A stretch of DNA of 64,000 nucleotides from Mustelus asterias (Eukaryota), in assembly GCF_964213995.1 (NCBI RefSeq), contig NW_027590783.1, positions 62,001 through 126,000 on the forward strand, in the 5' to 3' direction. Under the pieces are notes generated by a model, which saw nothing but the letters and a program-made list of their open reading frames with translations, ran no database searches and had not been told where the DNA came from. The position numbers were made by a program, and so were the translations under genes. Below are positions 100 through 10,084 of the stretch, piece by piece. Each line of letters opens with the position of its first letter. Positions within the stretch are counted from its first letter, which is position 1.

Positions 100-858
100 T
101 CATTTGTGAACTCGCTGGTGTCTCTGCAAGTTGCATAACAATGTGAATCCCTTCCCACACATGGAGCAGGTGAACGGTCTCTCCCCGGTGTGAACTCGCT
201 GGTGTTTCATCACGGTTGCTGAATGTTTGAATCCCCTTCCACACACAGAGCAGTTGAATGGCTTCTTCTCAGTGTGAACTCGCTGGTGTGTCAGCAGGTT
301 TGATGAATCACTGAATCCTCTCTCACACTCAGAGCAGGTGAATGGCTTTTCCCCTCTGTGGACCCGCTGGTGTGTTAGCAAGTGGGATGACTGAATGAAT
401 CCCTTTCCACAGTCAGAGCAATTGAACGGTCTCTCTCCGGTGTGAACTCGCTGGTGTGTCAGTCGTGTGGATGAATTACTGAATACTTTTCCACAAACAG
501 GGCAGGTGAATGGCTTCTCCCCAGTGTGAACTCGCTGGTGTGCCAGCAAATGGGATGATTGAATGAATCCCTTCCCACAGTCAGAGCAGGTGAATGGTCT
601 CTCCCCACTGTGAATTCGCTGGTGTCTCCGCAGTGTGGGTAAATCACTGAATCCCTTCCCACACTCAGAACAGGTGAACGGCCTCTCCCCGGTGTGAACT
701 CGCTGGTGTGTAAGCAGAAGAGAGAATTGACTAAATCCCTTCCCACACTGAGAGCAGGTGAATGGTCTCTCCCCGGTGTGACTGCGTCGATGAGTTTCCA
801 GCTTTGATGGGTAATTGAATCCCTTCCCACAGTCCCCACATTTCCACCGTTTCTCCAT
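100..858 (-). CDS. C2H2 (Kruppel-type) multi-zinc-finger protein, 9 tandem fingers, no KRAB/SCAN domain visible
   Basis: 252-aa ORF with nine C-x2-C-x12-H-x3-H fingers joined by TGERPF/TGEKPF-type linkers. A candidate splice acceptor (ccttttacag, minus strand) at 1214-1223 opens the terminal exon. A frameshifted relic finger lies just upstream of the ATG (~860-950). Confidence 0.93.
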   Translation of the reverse strand: MEKRWKCGDCGKGFNYPSKLETHRRSHTGERPFTCSQCGKGFSQFSLLLTHQRVHTGERPFTCSECGKGFSDLPTLRRHQRIHSGERPFTCSDCGKGFIQSSHLLAHQRVHTGEKPFTCPVCGKVFSNSSTRLTHQRVHTGERPFNCSDCGKGFIQSSHLLTHQRVHRGEKPFTCSECERGFSDSSNLLTHQRVHTEKKPFNCSVCGRGFKHSATVMKHQRVHTGERPFTCSMCGKGFTLLCNLQRHQRVHK

Positions 859-1854
859 GGTGCAGGTGCCCTTGTGACTCTGCTCGTTTCACGATCTGCT
901 GAAGACTCGTCCACACACACAACACAATTAATTTCTCTCCCTGATGTGAATGATGCAATGTTTTTTCAGACTGTGTTAAAGCTCTTTCCACAGTCCGTGC
1001 ACTGGAACACGCTCACTCAGGGGTGTGTGTGTTTCAGTGCTTTTCCAGGCACACTGATATTTAAGATCTCCTGAAAAAGACAGAACAGACAAAAATTTAT
1101 CCTTCTAAATTGAAAGACTGATGATATTCAGGTTCCGATAGAGTGAATTTGTGAGATCTTAGTGTGACATTTGGTTTGACATTTCTGCCTGAAAATCTTC
1201 ACCTTCTGATATCCTGTAAAAGGAGTTTACAAAATTCATCACTGTCAGTACAAGATAGAAATTCAGAACAGATAATTCTAGTTTCCATGGAACATTCTTT
1301 CCTCTCTCATTCCCCAAAAGCTGTAAATCTTCACCCCACACACTGTCCCTCCATTCTCACTCTGCTGTATCTAATATTCACCCTCCCAATTCTCCTGAAG
1401 GTGCTGATTGAGGCTGATTGACAGATCCATGCTCACTGCTTCCAGAACTAAGAGACTTTTACCAAGAGTCAGGATGGACTTGTGTGGCTGAAAGGACCCC
1501 TTTGCTGTAATGACTCTATTACTGGAAGTATAGAACATAGGTACAGTACAATATTAAAAGAGTATAAATAAGAATAAATTACTTCATTGCAGAACCATAA
1601 ATAATTTATCTAATCTGTGACAAAAATAATCATGAGATATATCTCTGTCCTATATTAATTTACTGTCCCCTTAAATGTCAGCCATCTCCTGGGGAAAGCA
1701 GCCCTTTAATTCTGAACATTAGGAAAGAGACCATCCTCTTAACCAGACAAATCAATGTGTCAAGCTGAGGGAGCAAAGAATGTCAATGTCTTTAAGAGAG
1801 AGAGAGAGACCTGGGCCAACCTTTCCAGAGTCTGCACACTTCCTGGATTCACTT

Positions 1855-2551: not shown

Positions 2552-2575
2552 ATTGGCTGATTCTTTTCACTTCCT

Positions 2576-3062
2576 TGAGTCTGTCTGGAGCTCAATCTTC
2601 ATTCAGAGATAGAAGCAGCAGCAGCTTCGCTGGGCAGGAATGAGCAGCTGAACAAGCTCATTGTCCAGATTCCGCATTCAGACAATGGGGGGCTCTGATT
2701 GGCTGGAGGACCATGGAACTTCCGGTCCTCCAGAGTTTCCATTGGTTAATCCCCGCAGACAGACAATGAGGGGCGGAGCCCTACGTGGGGGTGGGCGGGA
2801 CTTTGTCCTCCAGCCGCGCTGAGCTGTTGTCCAATGGGAAAGGCTGGAAGAGCCGGACAGACAATGGTCAGTGCGCCGGCTCTGTCCCGGGCCCCGCCCC
2901 ACATCCGCACTCCCCCCAGAATCCGCACATGCGCACCTTTGATTCACGGCCCCTTACCAGCTCTGGCCAATAGGAAGTGTTGGAGGACCGGAAGGACTCT
3001 GGTCCCCAGCCATTGAAAGCGCGGGCCTTGTGTGAATGAAGATGGAGTTTCAGAGAGAGTCA
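2576..3062. promoter_or_regulatory. GC-rich, palindromic, probably bidirectional Pol II promoter
   Basis: CCAAT boxes on both strands (2698, 2741, 2831, 2967), CCGGAA ETS cores, GGGCGG GC boxes and a YY1-like AAGATGG (~3039). Inverted arms at 2697-2746/2966-3015 and 2576-2605/3033-3062. Confidence 0.65.
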
Positions 3063-3077
3063 AACTTTCTCCTGTCG

Positions 3078-6000
3078 GCCACATCTGTGAGTGGGAAAGA
3101 TTGGACTGTCCAGCCAGTCCACCATATTGGCCGTTCGCTTTGCGTGTTGGCCAGTATGGTGTGCTCCAGGCAGGGGGCGGGCAGAGGATAAGGAGTTCAA
3201 GGCGGGCTTAATGCGCGCCTTGCGGTGAGCTTTTGGAAATGTGGCCGCTGGGAGGAACGCCTTGGTCGGCGTGAAGTTTCTGTTTCAAGTGCTTGGGTTC
3301 GTGACTTGTGCAAGAACTTTTTGTTTCGGCTGGGGCTTGTTGAATGCTGCTCTCGCTGGGATTCCTGTGCCTTGAAAGGCGTGGCCCAGGTAGATGCAAT
3401 CTCGGAAGACCCAAGCCAGGGAGGAGCCATTTGGGAACTATGGTTTCGGAAGGTTCAGCCGCGGAAGGTGTGACCCCAGACGGTGCAGCCCCAGTGGGTG
3501 TGATTTTGGAAGTTCTGGCCCGGAGTGGTGGACTTTGGAGGACTGTAGTTGAGCGTTGTCGACTTCGGACGGTGGAATGTTGATGGGCGAAGCTCTGGAA
3601 GGCGATGCCTCCAAAATGTTTCACAATTGTATGGTTGTTCATGGATTGTTTGTTATTGTAATATGTGGTTTTCCTGTTATGATAGTTGGTGGTTTGTTCT
3701 GGCCCCCGTCTATTTTCTTGCGTTATTTGTGGCCTGGGGGGCATCCCCCCCTGGATGGAGTCACCCCCGGGGGGTGTCACATCCACTTGGGGAAAGTTCT
3801 GGGTGGTGAAGCCCCGGACATAGTAACACCAGAGGGATTTTTATTCTCCGGGAGAAAAATTGGGAAGGCAGGCCCGAACTGAGTACCCTGGAGAGACTCT
3901 CCCACCGCCCCGGCTGAAATTCCGGAAGGCAGTCCGGATTGAGTAGGCGGGGTGGTTTCCCCCATTTCCCCCCTCCGGCTGAACATCCGTAAGGTGTAAC
4001 CCCCGGATATGAGTACCACTGGAGGGTTGCATCCCCCGGCAGGTGGACAAACCCAGGGGACGGTGCCCTTATGCTTCAGTGTTTATTTTTTTGTTGTGTA
4101 CAGTTGTAGTGTTGTTAATGTTTGTAGATTTGTAGATTATGATTTGTAAATGGAGGTGTATTTTGAGGGCAATGCCCTGGAAAACTGTAATTGACGATGA
4201 ACCCTTCCGAAATGGAAGGTAGTAATTGATAAATGGATGGTGTTAGCCATCGGTAATGTATTTTTCATGAATTGTTTGTTATTGTAATATGTGGTTTTCC
4301 TGTTATGATAGTTGGTGGTTTGTTCCGGCCCCCGTCTATTTTCTTGCGTTACTTGTGGCCTGGGGGGGCATCCCCCCCTGGATAAAGTCACCCCCGGGGG
4401 GTGTGACATCCACTTGGGGAAAGTTCTGGGTGGTGAAGCCCCGGACATAGTAACACCAGAGGGATTTTTATTCTCCGGGAGAAAAATTGGGAAGGCAGGC
4501 CCGAACTGAGTACCCTGGAGAGACTCTCCCACCGCCCCGGCTGAAATTCCGGAAGGGATTCCGGATTGAGTAGGCGGGGTGGTTTCCCCCATTTCCCCCC
4601 TCCGACTGAACATCCGTAAGGTGTAACCCCCGGATATGAGTACCACTGGAGGGTTGCATCCCCCGGCAGGTGGACAAACCCAGGGGACGGTGCCCTTATG
4701 CTTCAGTGTTTATTTTTTGTTGTGTACAGTTGTAGTGTTGTGTTCATGTTTGTAGATTTGTAGATTATAATTTGTAAATAGAGGTGTATTTTGAGGGCAG
4801 TGCCCTGGAAAACTGTAATTGACGATGAACCCTTCCGAAATGGAAGGTAGTAACTGATAAATGGATGGCGTTAGCCATTGGTAATGTATTTTTTTCACAT
4901 TTGTTCTTTGTGTATTTGTAATTGTTTTGTATTAACGTATTTGTAATAAACAAAAAGAAAGCCACATCTGTGAGTGGGAAAGATTGGACTGTCCAGCCAG
5001 TCCACCATATTGGCCGTTCGCTTTGCGTGTTGGCCAGTATAGTGTGCTCCAGGCAGGGGGCGGGCAGAGGATAAGGAATTCAAGGCGGGCTTAATGCGCG
5101 CCTTGCGGTGAGCTTTTGGAAATGTGGCCGCTGGGAGGAACGCCTTGGACGGCGTGAAGTTTCTGTTTCAAGTGCTTGGGTTCGTGACTTGTGCAAGAAC
5201 TTTTTGTTTCGGCTGGGGCTTGTTGAATGCTGCTCTCGCTGGGATTCCTGTGCCTTGAAGGGCGTGGCCCAGGTAGATGCAGTCTCGGAAGACCCAAGCC
5301 AGGGAGGAGCCATTTGGGAACTATGGTTTCGGAAGGTTCAGCCGCGGAAGGTGTGACCCCAGACGGTGCAGCCCCAGTGGGTGTGATTTTGGAAGTTCTG
5401 GCCCGGAGTGGTGGACTTTGGAGGACTGTAGTTGAGCGTTGTCGACTTCGGACGGTGGAATGTTGATGGGCGAAGCTCTGGAAGGCGATGCCTCCGAAAT
5501 GTTTCACAATTGTATGGTTGTTCATGGATTGTTTGTTATTGTAATATGTGGTTTTCCTGTTATGATTGTTGGTGGTTCCGGCCCCCGTCTATTTTCTTGC
5601 GTTATTGTGGCCTGGGGGGCATCCCCCCCTGGATAAAGTCACCCCCGGGGGGTGTGACATCCACTTGGGAAAATGCTCTGGGTGGTGAAGCCCCGGACAT
5701 AGTAACACCAGAGGGATTTTTATTCTCCGGGAGAAAGATTGGGAAGGCAGGCCCGAACTGAGTACCCTGGAGAGACTCTCCCACCGCCCCGGCTGAAATT
5801 CCGGAAGGCAGTCCGGATTGAGTAGGCGGGGTGGTTTCCCCATTTCCCCCCTCCGGCTGAACATCCATAAGGTGTAACCCCCGGATATGAGTACCACTGG
5901 AGGGTTGCATCCCCCGGCAGGTGGACAAACCCAGGGGACGGTGCCCTTATGCTTCAGTGTTTATTTTTTTGTTGTGTACAGTTGTAGTGTTGTTAATGTT

Positions 6001-9000
6001 TGTAGATTTGTAGATTATGATTTGTAAATGGAGGTGTATTTTGAGGGCAATGCCCTGGAAAACTGTAATTGACGATGAACCCTTCCGAAATGGAAGGTAG
6101 TAATTGATAAATGGATGGTGTTAGCCATCGGTAATGTATTTTTCATGGATTGTTTGTTATTGTAATATGTGGTTTTCCTGTTATGATAGTTGGTGGTTTG
6201 TTCCGGCCCCCGTCTATTTTTTTGCGTTATTTGTGGCCTGGGGGGCATCCCCCCCTGGAAAAAGTCACCCCCGGGGGGTGTGACATCCACTTGGGGAAAG
6301 TTCTGGGTGGTGAAGCCCCGGACATAGTAACACCAGAGGGATTTTTATTCTCCGGGAGAAAAATTGGGAAGGCAGGCCCGAACTGAGTACCCTGGAGAGA
6401 CTCTCCCACCGCCCCGGCTGAAATTCCGGAAGGGATTCCGGATTGAGTAGGCGGGGTGGTTTCCCCCATTTCCCCCCTCCGGCTGAACATCCGTAAGGTG
6501 TAACCCCCGGATATGAGTACCACTGGAGGGTTGCATCCCCCGGCAGGTGGACAAACCCAGGGGACGGTGCCCTTATGCTTCAGTGTTTATTTTTTGTTGT
6601 GTACAGTTGTAGTGTTGTGTTAATGTTTGTAGATTTGTAGATTATGATTTGTAAATGGAGGTGTATTTTGAGGGCAATGCCCTGGAAAACTGTAATTGAC
6701 GATGAACCCTTCCGAAATGGAAGGTAGTAACTGATAAATGGATGGCGTTAGCCATTGGTAATGTATTTTTTTTCACATTTGTTCTTTGTGTATTTGTAAT
6801 TGTTTTGTATTAACGTATTTGTAATAAACAAAAAGAAAGCCACATCTGTGAGTGGGAAAGATTGGACTGTCCAGCCAGTCCACCATATTGGCCGTTCGCT
6901 TTGCGTGTTGGCCAGTATAGTGTGCTCCAGGCAGGGGGCGGGCAGAGGATAAGGAATTCAAGGCGGGCTTAATGCGCGCCTTGCGGTGAGCTTTTGGAAA
7001 TGTGGCCGCTGGGAGGAACGCCTTGGACGGCGTGAAGTTTCTGTTTCAAGTGCTTGGGTTCGTGACTTGTGCAAGAACTTTTTGTTTCGGCTGGGGCTTG
7101 TTGAATGCTGCTCTCGCTGGGATTCCTGTGCCTTGAAAGGCGTGGCCCAGGTAGATGCAATCTCGGAAGACCCAAGCCAGGGAGGAGCCATTTGGGAACT
7201 ATGGTTTCGGAAGGTTCAGCCGCGGAAGGTGTGACCCCAGACGGTGCAGCCCCAGTGGGTGTGATTTTGGAAGTTCTGGCCCGGAGTGGTGGACTTTGGA
7301 GGACTGTAGTTGAGCGTTGTCGACTTCGGACGGTGGAATGTTGATGGGCGAAGCTCTGGAAGGCGATGCCTCCGAAATGTTTCACAATTGTATGGTTGTT
7401 CATGGATTGTTTGTTATTGTAATATGTGGTTTTCCTGTTATGATAGTTGGTGGTTTGTTCCGGCCCCCGTCTATTTTTCTTGCGTTATTTGTGGCCTGGG
7501 GGGCATCCCCCCCTGGATGGAGTCACCCCCGGGGGGTGTGACATCCACTTGGGGAAAGTTCTGGGTGGTGAAGCCCCGGACATAGTAACACCAGAGGGAT
7601 TTTTATTCTCCGGGAGAAAAATTGGGAAGGCAGGCCCGAACTGAGTACCCTGGAGAGACTCTCCCACCGCCCCGGCTGAAATTCCGGAAGGCAGTCCGGA
7701 TTGAGTAGGCGGGGTGGTTTCCCCATTTCCCCCCTCCGGCTGAACATCCGTAAGGTGTAACCCCCGGATATGAGTACCACTGGAGGGTTGCATCCCCCGG
7801 CAGGTGGACAAACCCAGGGGACGGTGCCCTTATGCTTCAGTGTTTATTTTTTGTTGTGTCCAGTTGTAGTGTTGTGTTAATGTTTGTAGATTTGTAGATT
7901 ATGATTTGTAAATGGAGGTGTATTTTGAGGGCAATGCCCTGGAAAACTGTAATTGACGATGAACCCTTCCGAAATGGAAGGTAGTAACTGATAAATGGAT
8001 GGCGTTAGCCATTGGTAATGTATTTTTTTCACATTTGTTCTTTGTGTATTTGTAATTGTTTTGTATTAACGTATTTGTAATAAACAAAAAGAAATCCACA
8101 TCTGTGAGTGGGAAAGATTGGATTGTCCAGCCAGTCCGCCATATTGGCCGTTCGCTTTGCGTGTTGGCCAGTATAGTGTGCTCCAGGCAGGGGGCGGGCA
8201 GGCAGAGGATAAGGAGTTCAAGGCGGGCTTAATGCGCGCCTTGCGGTGAGCTTTTGGAAATGTGGCCGCTGGGAGGAACGCCTTGGTCGGCGTGAAGTTT
8301 CTGTTTCAAGTGCTTGGGTTCGTGACTTGTGCAAGAACTTTTTTGTTTCGGCTGGGGCTTGTTGAATGCTGCTCTCGCTGGGATTCCTGTGCCTTGAAAG
8401 GTGTGGCCCAGGTAGATGCAATCTCGGAAGACCCAAACCAGGGAGGAGCCATTTGGGAACTATGGTTTCGGAAGGTTCAGCCGCGGAAGGTGTGACCCCA
8501 GACGGTGCAGCCCCAGTGGGTGTGATTTTGGAAGATCTGGCCCGGAGTGGTGGACTTTGGAGGACTGTAGTTGAGCGTTGTCGACTTCGGACGGTGGAAT
8601 GTTGATGGGCGAAGCTCTGGAAGGCGATGCCTCCGAAATGTTTCACAATTGTATGGTTGTTCATGGATTGTTTGTTATTGTAATATGTGGTTTTCCTGTT
8701 ATGATAGTTGGTGGTTTGTTCCGGCCCCCGTCTATTTTCTTGCGTTATTTGTGGCCTGGGGGGCATCCCCCCCTGGATGGAGTCACCCCCGGGGGGTGTG
8801 ACATCCACTTGGGGAAAGTTCTGGGTGGTGAAGCCCCGGACATAGTAACACCAGAGGGATTTTTATTCTCCGGGAGAAAAATTGGGAAGGCAGGCCCGAA
8901 CTGAGTACCCTGGAGAGACTCTCCCACCACCCCGGCTGAAATTCCGGAAGGCAGTCCGGATTGAGTAGGCGGGGTGGTTTCCCCATTTCCCCCCTCCGGC

Positions 9001-9983
9001 TGAACATCCGTAAGGTGTAACCCCCGGATATGAGTACCACTGGAGGGTTGCATCCCCCGGCAGGTGGACAAACCCAGGGGACGGTGCCCTTATGCTTCAG
9101 TGTTTATTTTTTTGTTGTGTACAGTTGTAGTGTTGTGTTAATGTTTGTAGATTTGTAGATTATGATTTGTAAATGGAGGTGTATTTTGAGGGCAATGCCC
9201 TGGAAAACTGTAATTGACGATGAACCCTTCCGAAATGGAAGGTAGTAATTGATAAATGGATGGTGTTAGCCATCGGTAATGTATTTTTCATGGATTGTTT
9301 GTTATTGTAATATGTGGTTATTCTGTTATGGTAGTTGGTGGTTTGTTCTGGCCCCCGTCTATTTTCTTGCGTTATTTGTGGCCTGGGGGGCATCCCCCCC
9401 TGGATAAAGTCACCCCCGGGGGGTGTGACATCCACTTGGGGAAAGTTCTGGGTGGTGAAGCCCCGGACATAGTAACACCAGAGGGATTTTTATTCTCCGG
9501 GAGAAAAATTGGGAAGGCAGGCCCGAACTGAGTACCCTGGAGAGACTCTCCCACCGCCCCGGCTGAAATTCCGGAAGGGATTCCGGATTGAGTAGGCGGG
9601 GTGGTTTCCCCCATTTCCCCCCTCCGGCTGAACATCCGTAAGGTGTAACCCCCGGATATGAGTACCACTGGAGGGTTGCATCCCCCGGCAGGTGGACAAA
9701 CCCAGGGGACGGTGCCCTTATGCTTCAGTGTTTATTTTTTTTGTTGTGTACAGTTGTAGTGTTGTGTTAATGTTTGTAGATTTGTAGATTATGATTTGTA
9801 AATGGAGGTGTATTTTGAGGGCAATGCCCTGGAAAACTGTAATTGACGATGAACCCTTCCGAAATGGAAGGTGGTAACTGATAAATGGATGGCGTTAGCC
9901 ATTGGTAATGTATTTTTTCACATTTGTTCTTTGTGTATTTGTAATTGTTTTGTATTAACGTATTTGTAATAAACAAAAAGAAA
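3078..9983 (+). repeat. Tandem array of four near-identical non-coding units (3078-4960, 4961-6838, 6839-8094, 8095-9983); probable non-autonomous non-LTR retroelement copies
   Basis: Periods are 1883, 1878, 1256 and ~1888 bp. Each unit is a ~560-bp head, two copies (one in unit 3) of a ~626-bp sub-repeat, and a T/G-rich tail ending AATAAACAAAAAGAAA. Junction CCACATCTGTGAG precedes every unit and CCAACATCTGAGAG follows the last. Confidence 0.95.
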
Positions 9984-10000
9984 CCAACATCTGAGAGGTT

Positions 10001-10073
10001 GTTTCTGCAGTGAAGTGGTTGTCACATTTGCCTGACACGCGAAAGGTCCCCGGGTCAGAACCGGGCGGAAATG
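10001..10073 (+). pseudogene. tRNA-Val pseudogene (anticodon position reads GAC)
   Basis: Aligns to vertebrate tRNA-Val GTTTCCGTAGTGTAGTGGTTATCACG...CCGGGCGGAAACA, but the B box is mutated (GGTCAGA) and several stem pairs are broken. Confidence 0.8.
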
Positions 10074-10084
10074 TTAATTTGGTC

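Follow-up and report, generated by a model that had tools for sequence, protein, structure and literature searches.

A non-coding retroelement family stacked at the exon-1 splice donor of zinc-finger genes in Mustelus asterias, with a Tx1-clade LINE as its likely partner

In a stretch of 64,000 nucleotides from the genome of Mustelus asterias (assembly GCF_964213995.1, contig NW_027590783.1, positions 62,001 to 126,000; hereafter the window) four non-coding units of a repeat lie head-to-tail at the first exon of a C2H2 zinc-finger (ZNF) gene. We consider it probable that this array consists of four young retroelements, inserted separately at the exon-1 splice donor, likely mobilised by a long interspersed element (LINE) of the Tx1 clade and likely steered to their target by host sequence carried on their own RNA. 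Retroposition and the preference for the donor are well supported by the genomic distribution of the family, while the enzyme, the steering by RNA and the splicing-out of the stack are what we infer from it.

The repeated site was preliminarily described as a 13-mer, CCACATCTGTGAG, which is present exactly at 3079, 4962, 6840 and 8096 and with 2 mismatches at 9985-9997; allowing up to 2 mismatches, the window has 9 matches against a chance expectation of 2.2. The actual repeat is 15 nt long (NNNACATCTGTGAGT), and its five copies differ, reading in order GCCAC, GCCAC, GCCAC, TCCAC and CCAAC..GAGAGG. The element proper spans GGGAAAGATTGG...AATAAACAAAAAGAAA and ends in a T/G-rich tract followed by AATAAA (4945, 6823, 8079, 9968) and CAAAAAGAAA, so that what resembles an A tail is a fixed A-rich end without variable poly(A). 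The four units are 98-99% identical; their lengths are unequal because three of them hold an internal segment of ~630 bp twice. The array is composed as follows (window coordinates):

3078-3092, plus strand: left site copy GCCACATCTGTGAGT; exon 1 ends at 3086 and the donor GTGAGT occupies 3087-3092, as placed from the intronless copy L352
3093-4960, plus strand: unit 1, 1868 bp; ~630-bp segment twice (3635-4260 and 4261-4893); AATAAA at 4945
4961-4975, plus strand: junction copy GCCACATCTGTGAGT
4976-6838, plus strand: unit 2, 1863 bp
6839-6853, plus strand: junction copy GCCACATCTGTGAGT
6854-8094, plus strand: unit 3, 1241 bp; internal segment once
8095-8109, plus strand: junction copy TCCACATCTGTGAGT
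8110-9983, plus strand: unit 4, 1874 bp
9984-9998, plus strand: right target copy CCAACATCTGAGAGG; site of another paralogue class, without a GT donor

The longest plus-strand frame of unit 4 has 109 amino acids, none of 9 unit frames matches a Pfam domain, and blastx of the unit against 120 Tx1-like proteins gave no match. Neither a ribozyme nor any known RNA was recovered at Rfam thresholds, and the folding z-scores are weak (-1.4 and -2.1). A polymerase III-type head was sought with ARAGORN, Rfam and A and B box motifs, and a U1- or U2-derived head at E values up to 10, in each case without a match in the unit; LINE-derived ends of the kind seen in SIDEs were likewise absent in comparisons with the Tx1 LINE L301, discussed below, and the 120 proteins. 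By the features tested the element would thus be neither a short interspersed element (SINE) nor a SINEU or SIDE, and its earlier characterisation as a non-coding, A-ended unit behind a repeated target holds for all four copies.

The 24-nt 3' end of the element has 235 exact occurrences in the 3.68-Gb genome, against 0 for a control. Of these, 125 fall in 69 ZNF-type loci, 40 in five arrays of a chimeric sub-lineage, 28 in scattered young copies and 1 in an older relative, with about 41 unclassified. All 28 scattered copies are 5'-truncated (66-1498 bp, except for one interrupted copy), 15 of them are bounded by target-site duplications (TSDs) of 11-16 bp (the site at ZNF loci has 15 bp), and in 24 the right flank starts with CCA or TCC. 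Truncated copies of 41 bp (L273) and 463 bp (L235) are also found exactly at the donor, and true poly(A) is present at four loci (L194, L056, L061, L069). This combination of a fixed 3' end, 5' truncation and duplications is the signature of target-primed reverse transcription, and bears out the original suggestion of a non-autonomous retroelement lacking long terminal repeats (non-LTR). A family has been treated as target-specific where one sequence type makes up >20% of its flanks (PMC4494074), a proportion that the 125 ZNF-type ends exceed.

Copies that reach position 1 of the element are all preceded by ...ACATCTGTGAGT or a close variant (30+40 loci examined). A pattern of exon-like DNA, donor and element head has 87 matches in the genome, comprising 76 ZNF-type loci, 2 array-internal positions and 9 members of the chimeric sub-lineage; at least 75 empty sites are recognised by a strict pattern, which makes this number a lower bound, and they include L360, a sister of the window locus. 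At most filled loci with enough downstream DNA a zinc-finger exon follows on the same strand within 1-3 kb, starting behind ...TTTTACAG/GATAT (here and below a slash marks a junction). In the intronless copy L352, which lies on a large contig, exon 1 is joined to exon 2 (...CAACATCT/GACATCAGAAG), and this joint identifies the donor as the GT inside the 15-bp site. These observations indicate that the target spans the exon-1 splice donor of clustered C2H2 zinc-finger genes, which sharpens the earlier assignment to a ZNF first exon, confirms the expectation of empty sites at paralogous promoters, and leaves the specificity partial. The expectation that full-length copies are bounded by the target is upheld as regards the donor and exon 1 in front of them; the chimeric sub-lineage has a second target. 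With a donor ahead of its first unit, the stack falls within intron 1, and normal splicing of filled genes is predicted. At the filled locus L229 the element is covered by contigs of four sequencing runs, whose depth cannot rank its parts, and no exon 1-exon 2 joint is among the 15 of 241 joints listed. In the full-text literature no Tx1 or non-autonomous element was found to be described as targeting a splice donor or ZNF exon; Repbase, Dfam and subscription journals, where such families may be named, lay beyond this search.

Two other views of the target were rejected. The 13-mer is not solely the element's own 5' end, as it is present at the 75 empty sites, although the left copy nevertheless appears to be RNA-derived. 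The array ends 17 bp before a tRNA-like segment, which had suggested targeting upstream of tRNAs; the idea was abandoned because the right flanks are intron-like at most filled loci and the tRNA-like piece belongs to one paralogue class.

Several variants of the family were observed. In the chimeric sub-lineage (L010, L019, L035, L052, L055, L062) the unit is combined with 24 nt of ZNF exon 1 and ~230 bp of another repeat containing CCAAT- and TATA-like motifs; it stacks at TCCYTGATTG within that repeat, in arrays of up to 20 kb on C19, and represents a natural switch of target. Older relatives (L101-L130, L282), 70-80% identical, share a conserved 3' hairpin region, have a different head and use targets such as TCCCCTAAT(A/G)AG; some of them directly precede an older Tx1 copy. 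At four loci (L200, L203, L228, L250) the unit is cut down to its first 322 bp, with a deletion at CCCAA/CCAA microhomology closing onto the right site.

A candidate for the enzyme source is the LINE L301, which adjoins one element array. Its Pfam matches to EEP and RVT_1 are above cut-off, those to zf-CCHC and zf-RVT below it, and its second open reading frame (ORF2) is 49% identical over 1297 amino acids to that of Xenopus Tx1L, the best named match being YTX2_XENLA. The predicted zinc knuckle in ORF1, together with the APE endonuclease, reverse transcriptase (RT) and C-terminal zinc motif of ORF2, would place L301 in the Tx1 clade. Its family is young (40 scored copies at 98-100%), and its tail abuts the same base as the element at 107 sites (AAAAGAGG/CCAACATC, also written AAAAGAGG/CCAACATCTGTGAG); Tx1 3' ends were found at all 20 of these that were read, two of them truncated and with 14-bp left copies. 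Tx1 tails adjoin the second target too, where one ends in CAAAAGAAA, and the same family has also inserted ~50 bp upstream in exon 1 with a GTCTC junction. The identity of target base and TSD in the two families suggests that the element is likely mobilised in trans by Tx1-clade enzymes. Of the link to Tx1 proposed earlier, the common insertion base thus stands, and common termini do not extend beyond an AAAAAGA motif. Two further arrangements involve Tx1 sequence: L301:1-9669 contains two tandem Tx1 copies ahead of the element array, joined by a captured exon-1-like head, and one paralogue class (L360, L362, L366, L369, L371-L376) has a fixed 14-nt Tx1 tail between two donor-site copies, which may be read as a fossil minimal insertion that later became a target of the element.

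Several features suggest that the element RNA carries host sequence at both ends. At L194 the order is tail, GCC, A19, 52 nt of exon 1 with the donor, and unit; this is one of three loci (with L232 and L245) where exon 1 stands in front of a unit away from the promoter, and the chimeric sub-lineage retains 24 nt of exon 1 and the donor at non-ZNF sites. The left site copies end in TGTGAGT in 52 of 57 filled loci, while the right copies vary, and the two are identical in only 15 of the 57. L199 and L212 have flanks matching those of an empty class in which the site ends in AGAGAGG, and their left copy instead ends in TGTGAGT; in the window, the left flank has 12 differences from its empty sister L360 in 2153 bp, 3 of them within the last 30. 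A few target bases precede the poly(A) at L194, L056 and L061. Target class also follows lineage: among 21 scattered copies of at least 230 bp with a CC or T junction (one A-junction copy left out), the nearest relatives are CC-junction units for 10 of the 11 CC-junction copies and members of the TCCYT sub-lineage for 7 of the 10 T-junction copies; 3 copies are tied and 1 goes against the trend. Because exon 1 is captured, target bases precede the poly(A) and target class follows lineage, the element RNA appears to be the source of both the left "duplication" and the first target bases. The earlier statement that the target is regenerated as a TSD is therefore right in that the site stands on both sides, and needs amending in that the left copy is not a pure TSD. 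Lineage-linked choice of junction is itself suggestive rather than decisive as a sign of RNA steering, because few source lineages are involved.

The same data could be read as the work of the Tx1 endonuclease alone, with RNA flanks that do not guide, and with the bias to full-length copies reflecting promoter dependence and selection. Tx1 and the element do use the same base, the 41-bp and 463-bp truncated copies reached the donor without exon-1 homology, and target choice is reported to be set mainly by the endonuclease (PMC4494074). However, sub-lineages with the same tail pick different junction classes that match their nearest relatives, target bases stand before the poly(A) at the three loci named above, and the same Tx1 family inserts at the GTCTC junction as well; we regard this explanation as unlikely, though it is the strongest of the alternatives. 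Less likely still is mobilisation by some other autonomous LINE that shares the ~630-bp 3' region and recognises it stringently, rather than by the donor-site Tx1. It would account for the lack of Tx1 homology beyond the last few bases and for the hairpin region conserved in the relatives; yet no autonomous copy sharing the element body, and no RT frame, was reached at any of 40 3'-anchored loci (taken among the 100 of 235 matches listed, favouring single copies on large contigs), 30 diverged-relative loci or 30 donor-right junctions, and insertion base and TSD length are identical with those of Tx1.

That the units were inserted separately, rather than multiplied from one old insertion, emerges from comparisons of elements and flanks. 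The element heads (first 540 bp) of 57 filled loci have a median identity of 98.5% (1596 pairs; minimum 96%), the 400-bp flanks of 57% and 49% against a shuffled baseline of 46%, and head and flank identity show no correlation; 816 locus pairs have heads at least 98% identical with both flanks below 80%. Clustering at 90% on both sides divides 58 loci into 48 flank groups (L234, whose array ran past the stretch, is counted in the grouping and dropped from the identity comparison). The window units have 15-24 mutual differences per 1170 bp versus 5-12 to relatives at other loci. Across all arrays the medians are 7 differences within and 8 between arrays per 540 bp, and the nearest neighbour lies in the same array for only 19 of 97 units, so that the mutual closeness expected of a satellite is missing. 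Since array units are no closer to each other than to units at other loci, the four in the window are best explained as separate insertions. The head-to-tail stacking at one site first proposed is thereby retained, and unequal crossover after a single insertion, which had been allowed for, is refuted for this array. A spread of one old insertion as a local satellite, by segmental duplication, gene conversion and unequal crossover, could invoke the duplication of ZNF loci in blocks (one group of 5 filled loci has both flanks at least 90% identical) and the recombination evident from the flank swaps described below; given the 48 flank groups, the equal differences within and between arrays, and the scattered truncated copies with TSDs of their own, it is largely refuted and we give it very little credence.

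The surroundings of the array in the window include the following features:

100-1213, minus strand: C2H2 zinc-finger coding exon of a neighbouring divergent gene, with acceptor ...TTTTACAG/GATATC at 1213
2560-3077, no strand assigned: predicted bidirectional ZNF promoter, its role being conjectural, with exon-1-like segments
10001-10073, plus strand: degenerate tRNA-like segment, in all probability from the head of a dead Tx1 derivative
10104-12058, plus strand: internally deleted Tx1 fragment, with 5' UTR, ORF1 start at 10768 and a C-terminal piece of ORF2 at 11905-12058

The 2.15 kb to the left of the array are 99.4% identical (2153 bp) to the empty sister L360, which has a right flank of a different class. 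To the right of the array, C89:1.70-1.71 Mb matches at 97.8% over 3.6 kb, with further blocks of 94-96% to ~8 kb, and the left flank there is unlike that of the array. Of 30 paralogues examined with this right flank class, consisting of site, tRNA-like piece and Tx1 fragment, 22 are empty; among six filled loci that have it, two keep the left flank of the class, one keeps it partly and three do not. The two sides of the array thus appear to derive from different paralogues, and a crossover between their stacks is the simplest explanation. L229 was considered as the reciprocal product, having the right flank of L360 (99.7%); its left flank is only 93% identical to the C89 class, and reciprocity is not shown. 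An assembly artefact, in the array or in the join of its flanks, might be suspected since each flank is accompanied elsewhere by a different partner and the window lies on a 178-kb contig, but the four units are distinct sequences, neither collapsed nor repeated copies, the same kind of flank swap recurs at L229, L236 and L247, and element sequence is present in contigs of runs from two studies, which makes this explanation highly improbable; a misjoin would in any case touch the window locus only and leave the reading of the family unaffected.

Several points count against the interpretation offered here. A TSD of 9 bp or more is missing at 13 of the 28 scattered copies, and specificity is partial, since 28 or more loci are scattered and 40 ends lie at the second target. 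The 76 filled loci were picked by a pattern that requires the donor; unbiased support comes from the 30+40 loci. The position of the donor is based on one intronless copy plus the consensus. Unit and Tx1 L301 have nothing in common beyond the AAAAAGA(A/G)-like end in blastn, tblastx and blastx comparisons, and because the element body and Tx1 lack common sequence, the partnership is deduced from shared sites, as it was for SINEU and Tx1-Mar (PMC4494074). The permutation value for the association of lineage and junction (0/10,000) overstates independence, there being few source lineages. No zinc-finger exon lies downstream on the plus strand within the window, and as the plus-strand gene lacks one, harmlessness in intron 1 does not apply to the window locus itself.

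These observations allow us to propose, tentatively and with a little less than even confidence in the scheme as a whole, how a promoterless element could maintain itself by using a host promoter, carrying a splice donor on its own RNA so that every full-length insertion sets a functional donor ahead of itself, being spliced out, and switching targets with the same enzyme by way of read-through bases, its stacks serving as points of recombination at which ZNF genes exchange promoters. The single steps that follow belong to the main reading, which we consider probable. Transcription would start at the ZNF promoter of the host, placing exon 1 and the donor ahead of the element. Its RNA would read 2-4 bases into the downstream target before being polyadenylated ~13 nt behind AATAAA, as is seen at a few copies. 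The Tx1 endonuclease would nick Y/CC-type sites, and the read-through bases would pair with the nicked strand, so that daughters land on sites resembling the right flank of their parent. The exon-1 and donor sequence at the end of the cDNA may then anneal to exon 1 of the target, as the replacement of sequence there suggests, resulting in the uniform junction ...GTGAGT/GGGAAAG and in overwriting of the left site copy; elsewhere only truncated copies would arise. As the target site is regenerated on both sides, later copies stack. The stack in intron 1 is predicted to be spliced out unless an AATAAA of the element ends the transcript, and stacks at different paralogues may recombine, which would explain the unlike flanks of the window array.

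The closest known systems appear to be the crocodilian SINEU-3 and SINEU-2 with Tx1-Mar, and also co-transcribed R1 and R2 elements. Like the element described here, these SINEUs are non-autonomous, lack a polymerase III promoter of their own, show the target preference of a Tx1 group, and form tandem copies around a TSD of ~16 bp with 5' extensions suggestive of transcription from flanking DNA (PMC4494074). They are short, with U1- or U2-derived heads unlike the present unit, and their target is a Mariner DNA transposon as against a protein-coding splice donor; an RNA-templated left junction and a lineage-linked switch of target, as suggested here, do not figure in the part of the SINEU account available in PMC4494074. 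Tx1L of Xenopus laevis (ORF2 = YTX2_XENLA, P0006) resembles the donor-site LINE in its APE endonuclease, RT and target preference. The targets reported for Tx1L and the Tx1-clade families Keno, Kibi and Koshi comprise a piggyBac element, U2, U5 and 5S genes, satellites and microsatellites (PMC4494074); our unit encodes nothing. A model proposed for R2 has host sequence at the 5' end of the RNA annealing to the target, with uniform 5' junctions as the result (PMC3774820), and the uniform left junctions here resemble it; in R1Bm and SART1, downstream target sequence is reported to anneal at the 3' end (PMC7265360). The targets of R1, R2 and SART1 are rDNA or telomeres, whereas the host here is a polymerase II-transcribed, spliced gene family. 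The SIDEs of R2 and R1 are non-autonomous, co-transcribed and bounded by 14-bp TSDs (PMC3414825), but differ from the unit, in which neither a ribozyme (Rfam) nor a LINE-derived 3' UTR (versus L301) was found. SVA_F1 with its MAST2 5' transduction is also non-autonomous, borrows a gene promoter and carries a first exon (PMC4494074); it represents a single capture without return to the gene, whereas the copies described here have come back to one and the same exon across many paralogues. By analogy, then, the element would work in the manner of SINEU-3/Tx1-Mar and co-transcribed R1/R2, and what sets it apart is its home in a protein-coding splice donor.

Site-specific non-LTR elements have been reported to target rRNA, tRNA, snRNA and spliced-leader genes, as well as transposons, microsatellites and telomeres (PMC4640811). 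A splice donor common to a polymerase II-transcribed protein-coding family would add to these a new class of safe haven, one with avoidance of harm built in. Sub-lineages differing only in their flank offer a direct test of the shares of endonuclease and RNA-DNA pairing in LINE targeting, and a vertebrate Tx1 site that can be shifted by a few RNA bases, if real, would be of interest for retrotransposon-based gene insertion. The stacks might also be a driver of turnover in the zinc-finger clusters of fish.

The neighbourhood of the array has several other peculiarities. The predicted promoter region contains inverted paralogous copies (2575-2605/3033-3063 and 2708-2732/2981-3005). The tRNA-like segment, which we take to resemble a Val tRNA, scored 39 bits against the Rfam tRNA model in one scan and had no match when the short stretch was scanned alone. 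The exon-1 site, the tRNA-like segment and the internally deleted Tx1 form a cassette (window 9984-12058; L161-L190) that occurs in at least 25 places; because the young Tx1 L301 has a similar head of exon 1 and tRNA-like sequence, the cassette probably represents the head of a dead Tx1 copy that segmental duplication has multiplied. A second sister of the left flank, L361 (99.2%), has a Tx1 3' end in opposite orientation within exon 1. A 5S rRNA copy on the minus strand (2443-2551) follows closely on the exon-1-like part of the ZNF gene of that strand, where the donor of this gene would be expected, a placement common to at least 6 paralogues.

A near full-length LINE on the minus strand at 29.7-33.9 kb has a GDSL-esterase ORF1 (314 amino acids) and an endonuclease/RT ORF2 with one stop near its start. 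The fifth exact 13-mer of the window (33603, minus strand) is a chance match within ORF1 of this unrelated LINE, and its position there rules the LINE out as a partner of the element. An old inverted duplication (74-81%; 12299-13436 and 15936-16567) flanks a LINE fragment, and right after the ZNF locus the window from 12.9 to 64 kb is occupied by a loose tRNA cluster of 8 ARAGORN genes and degenerate copies.

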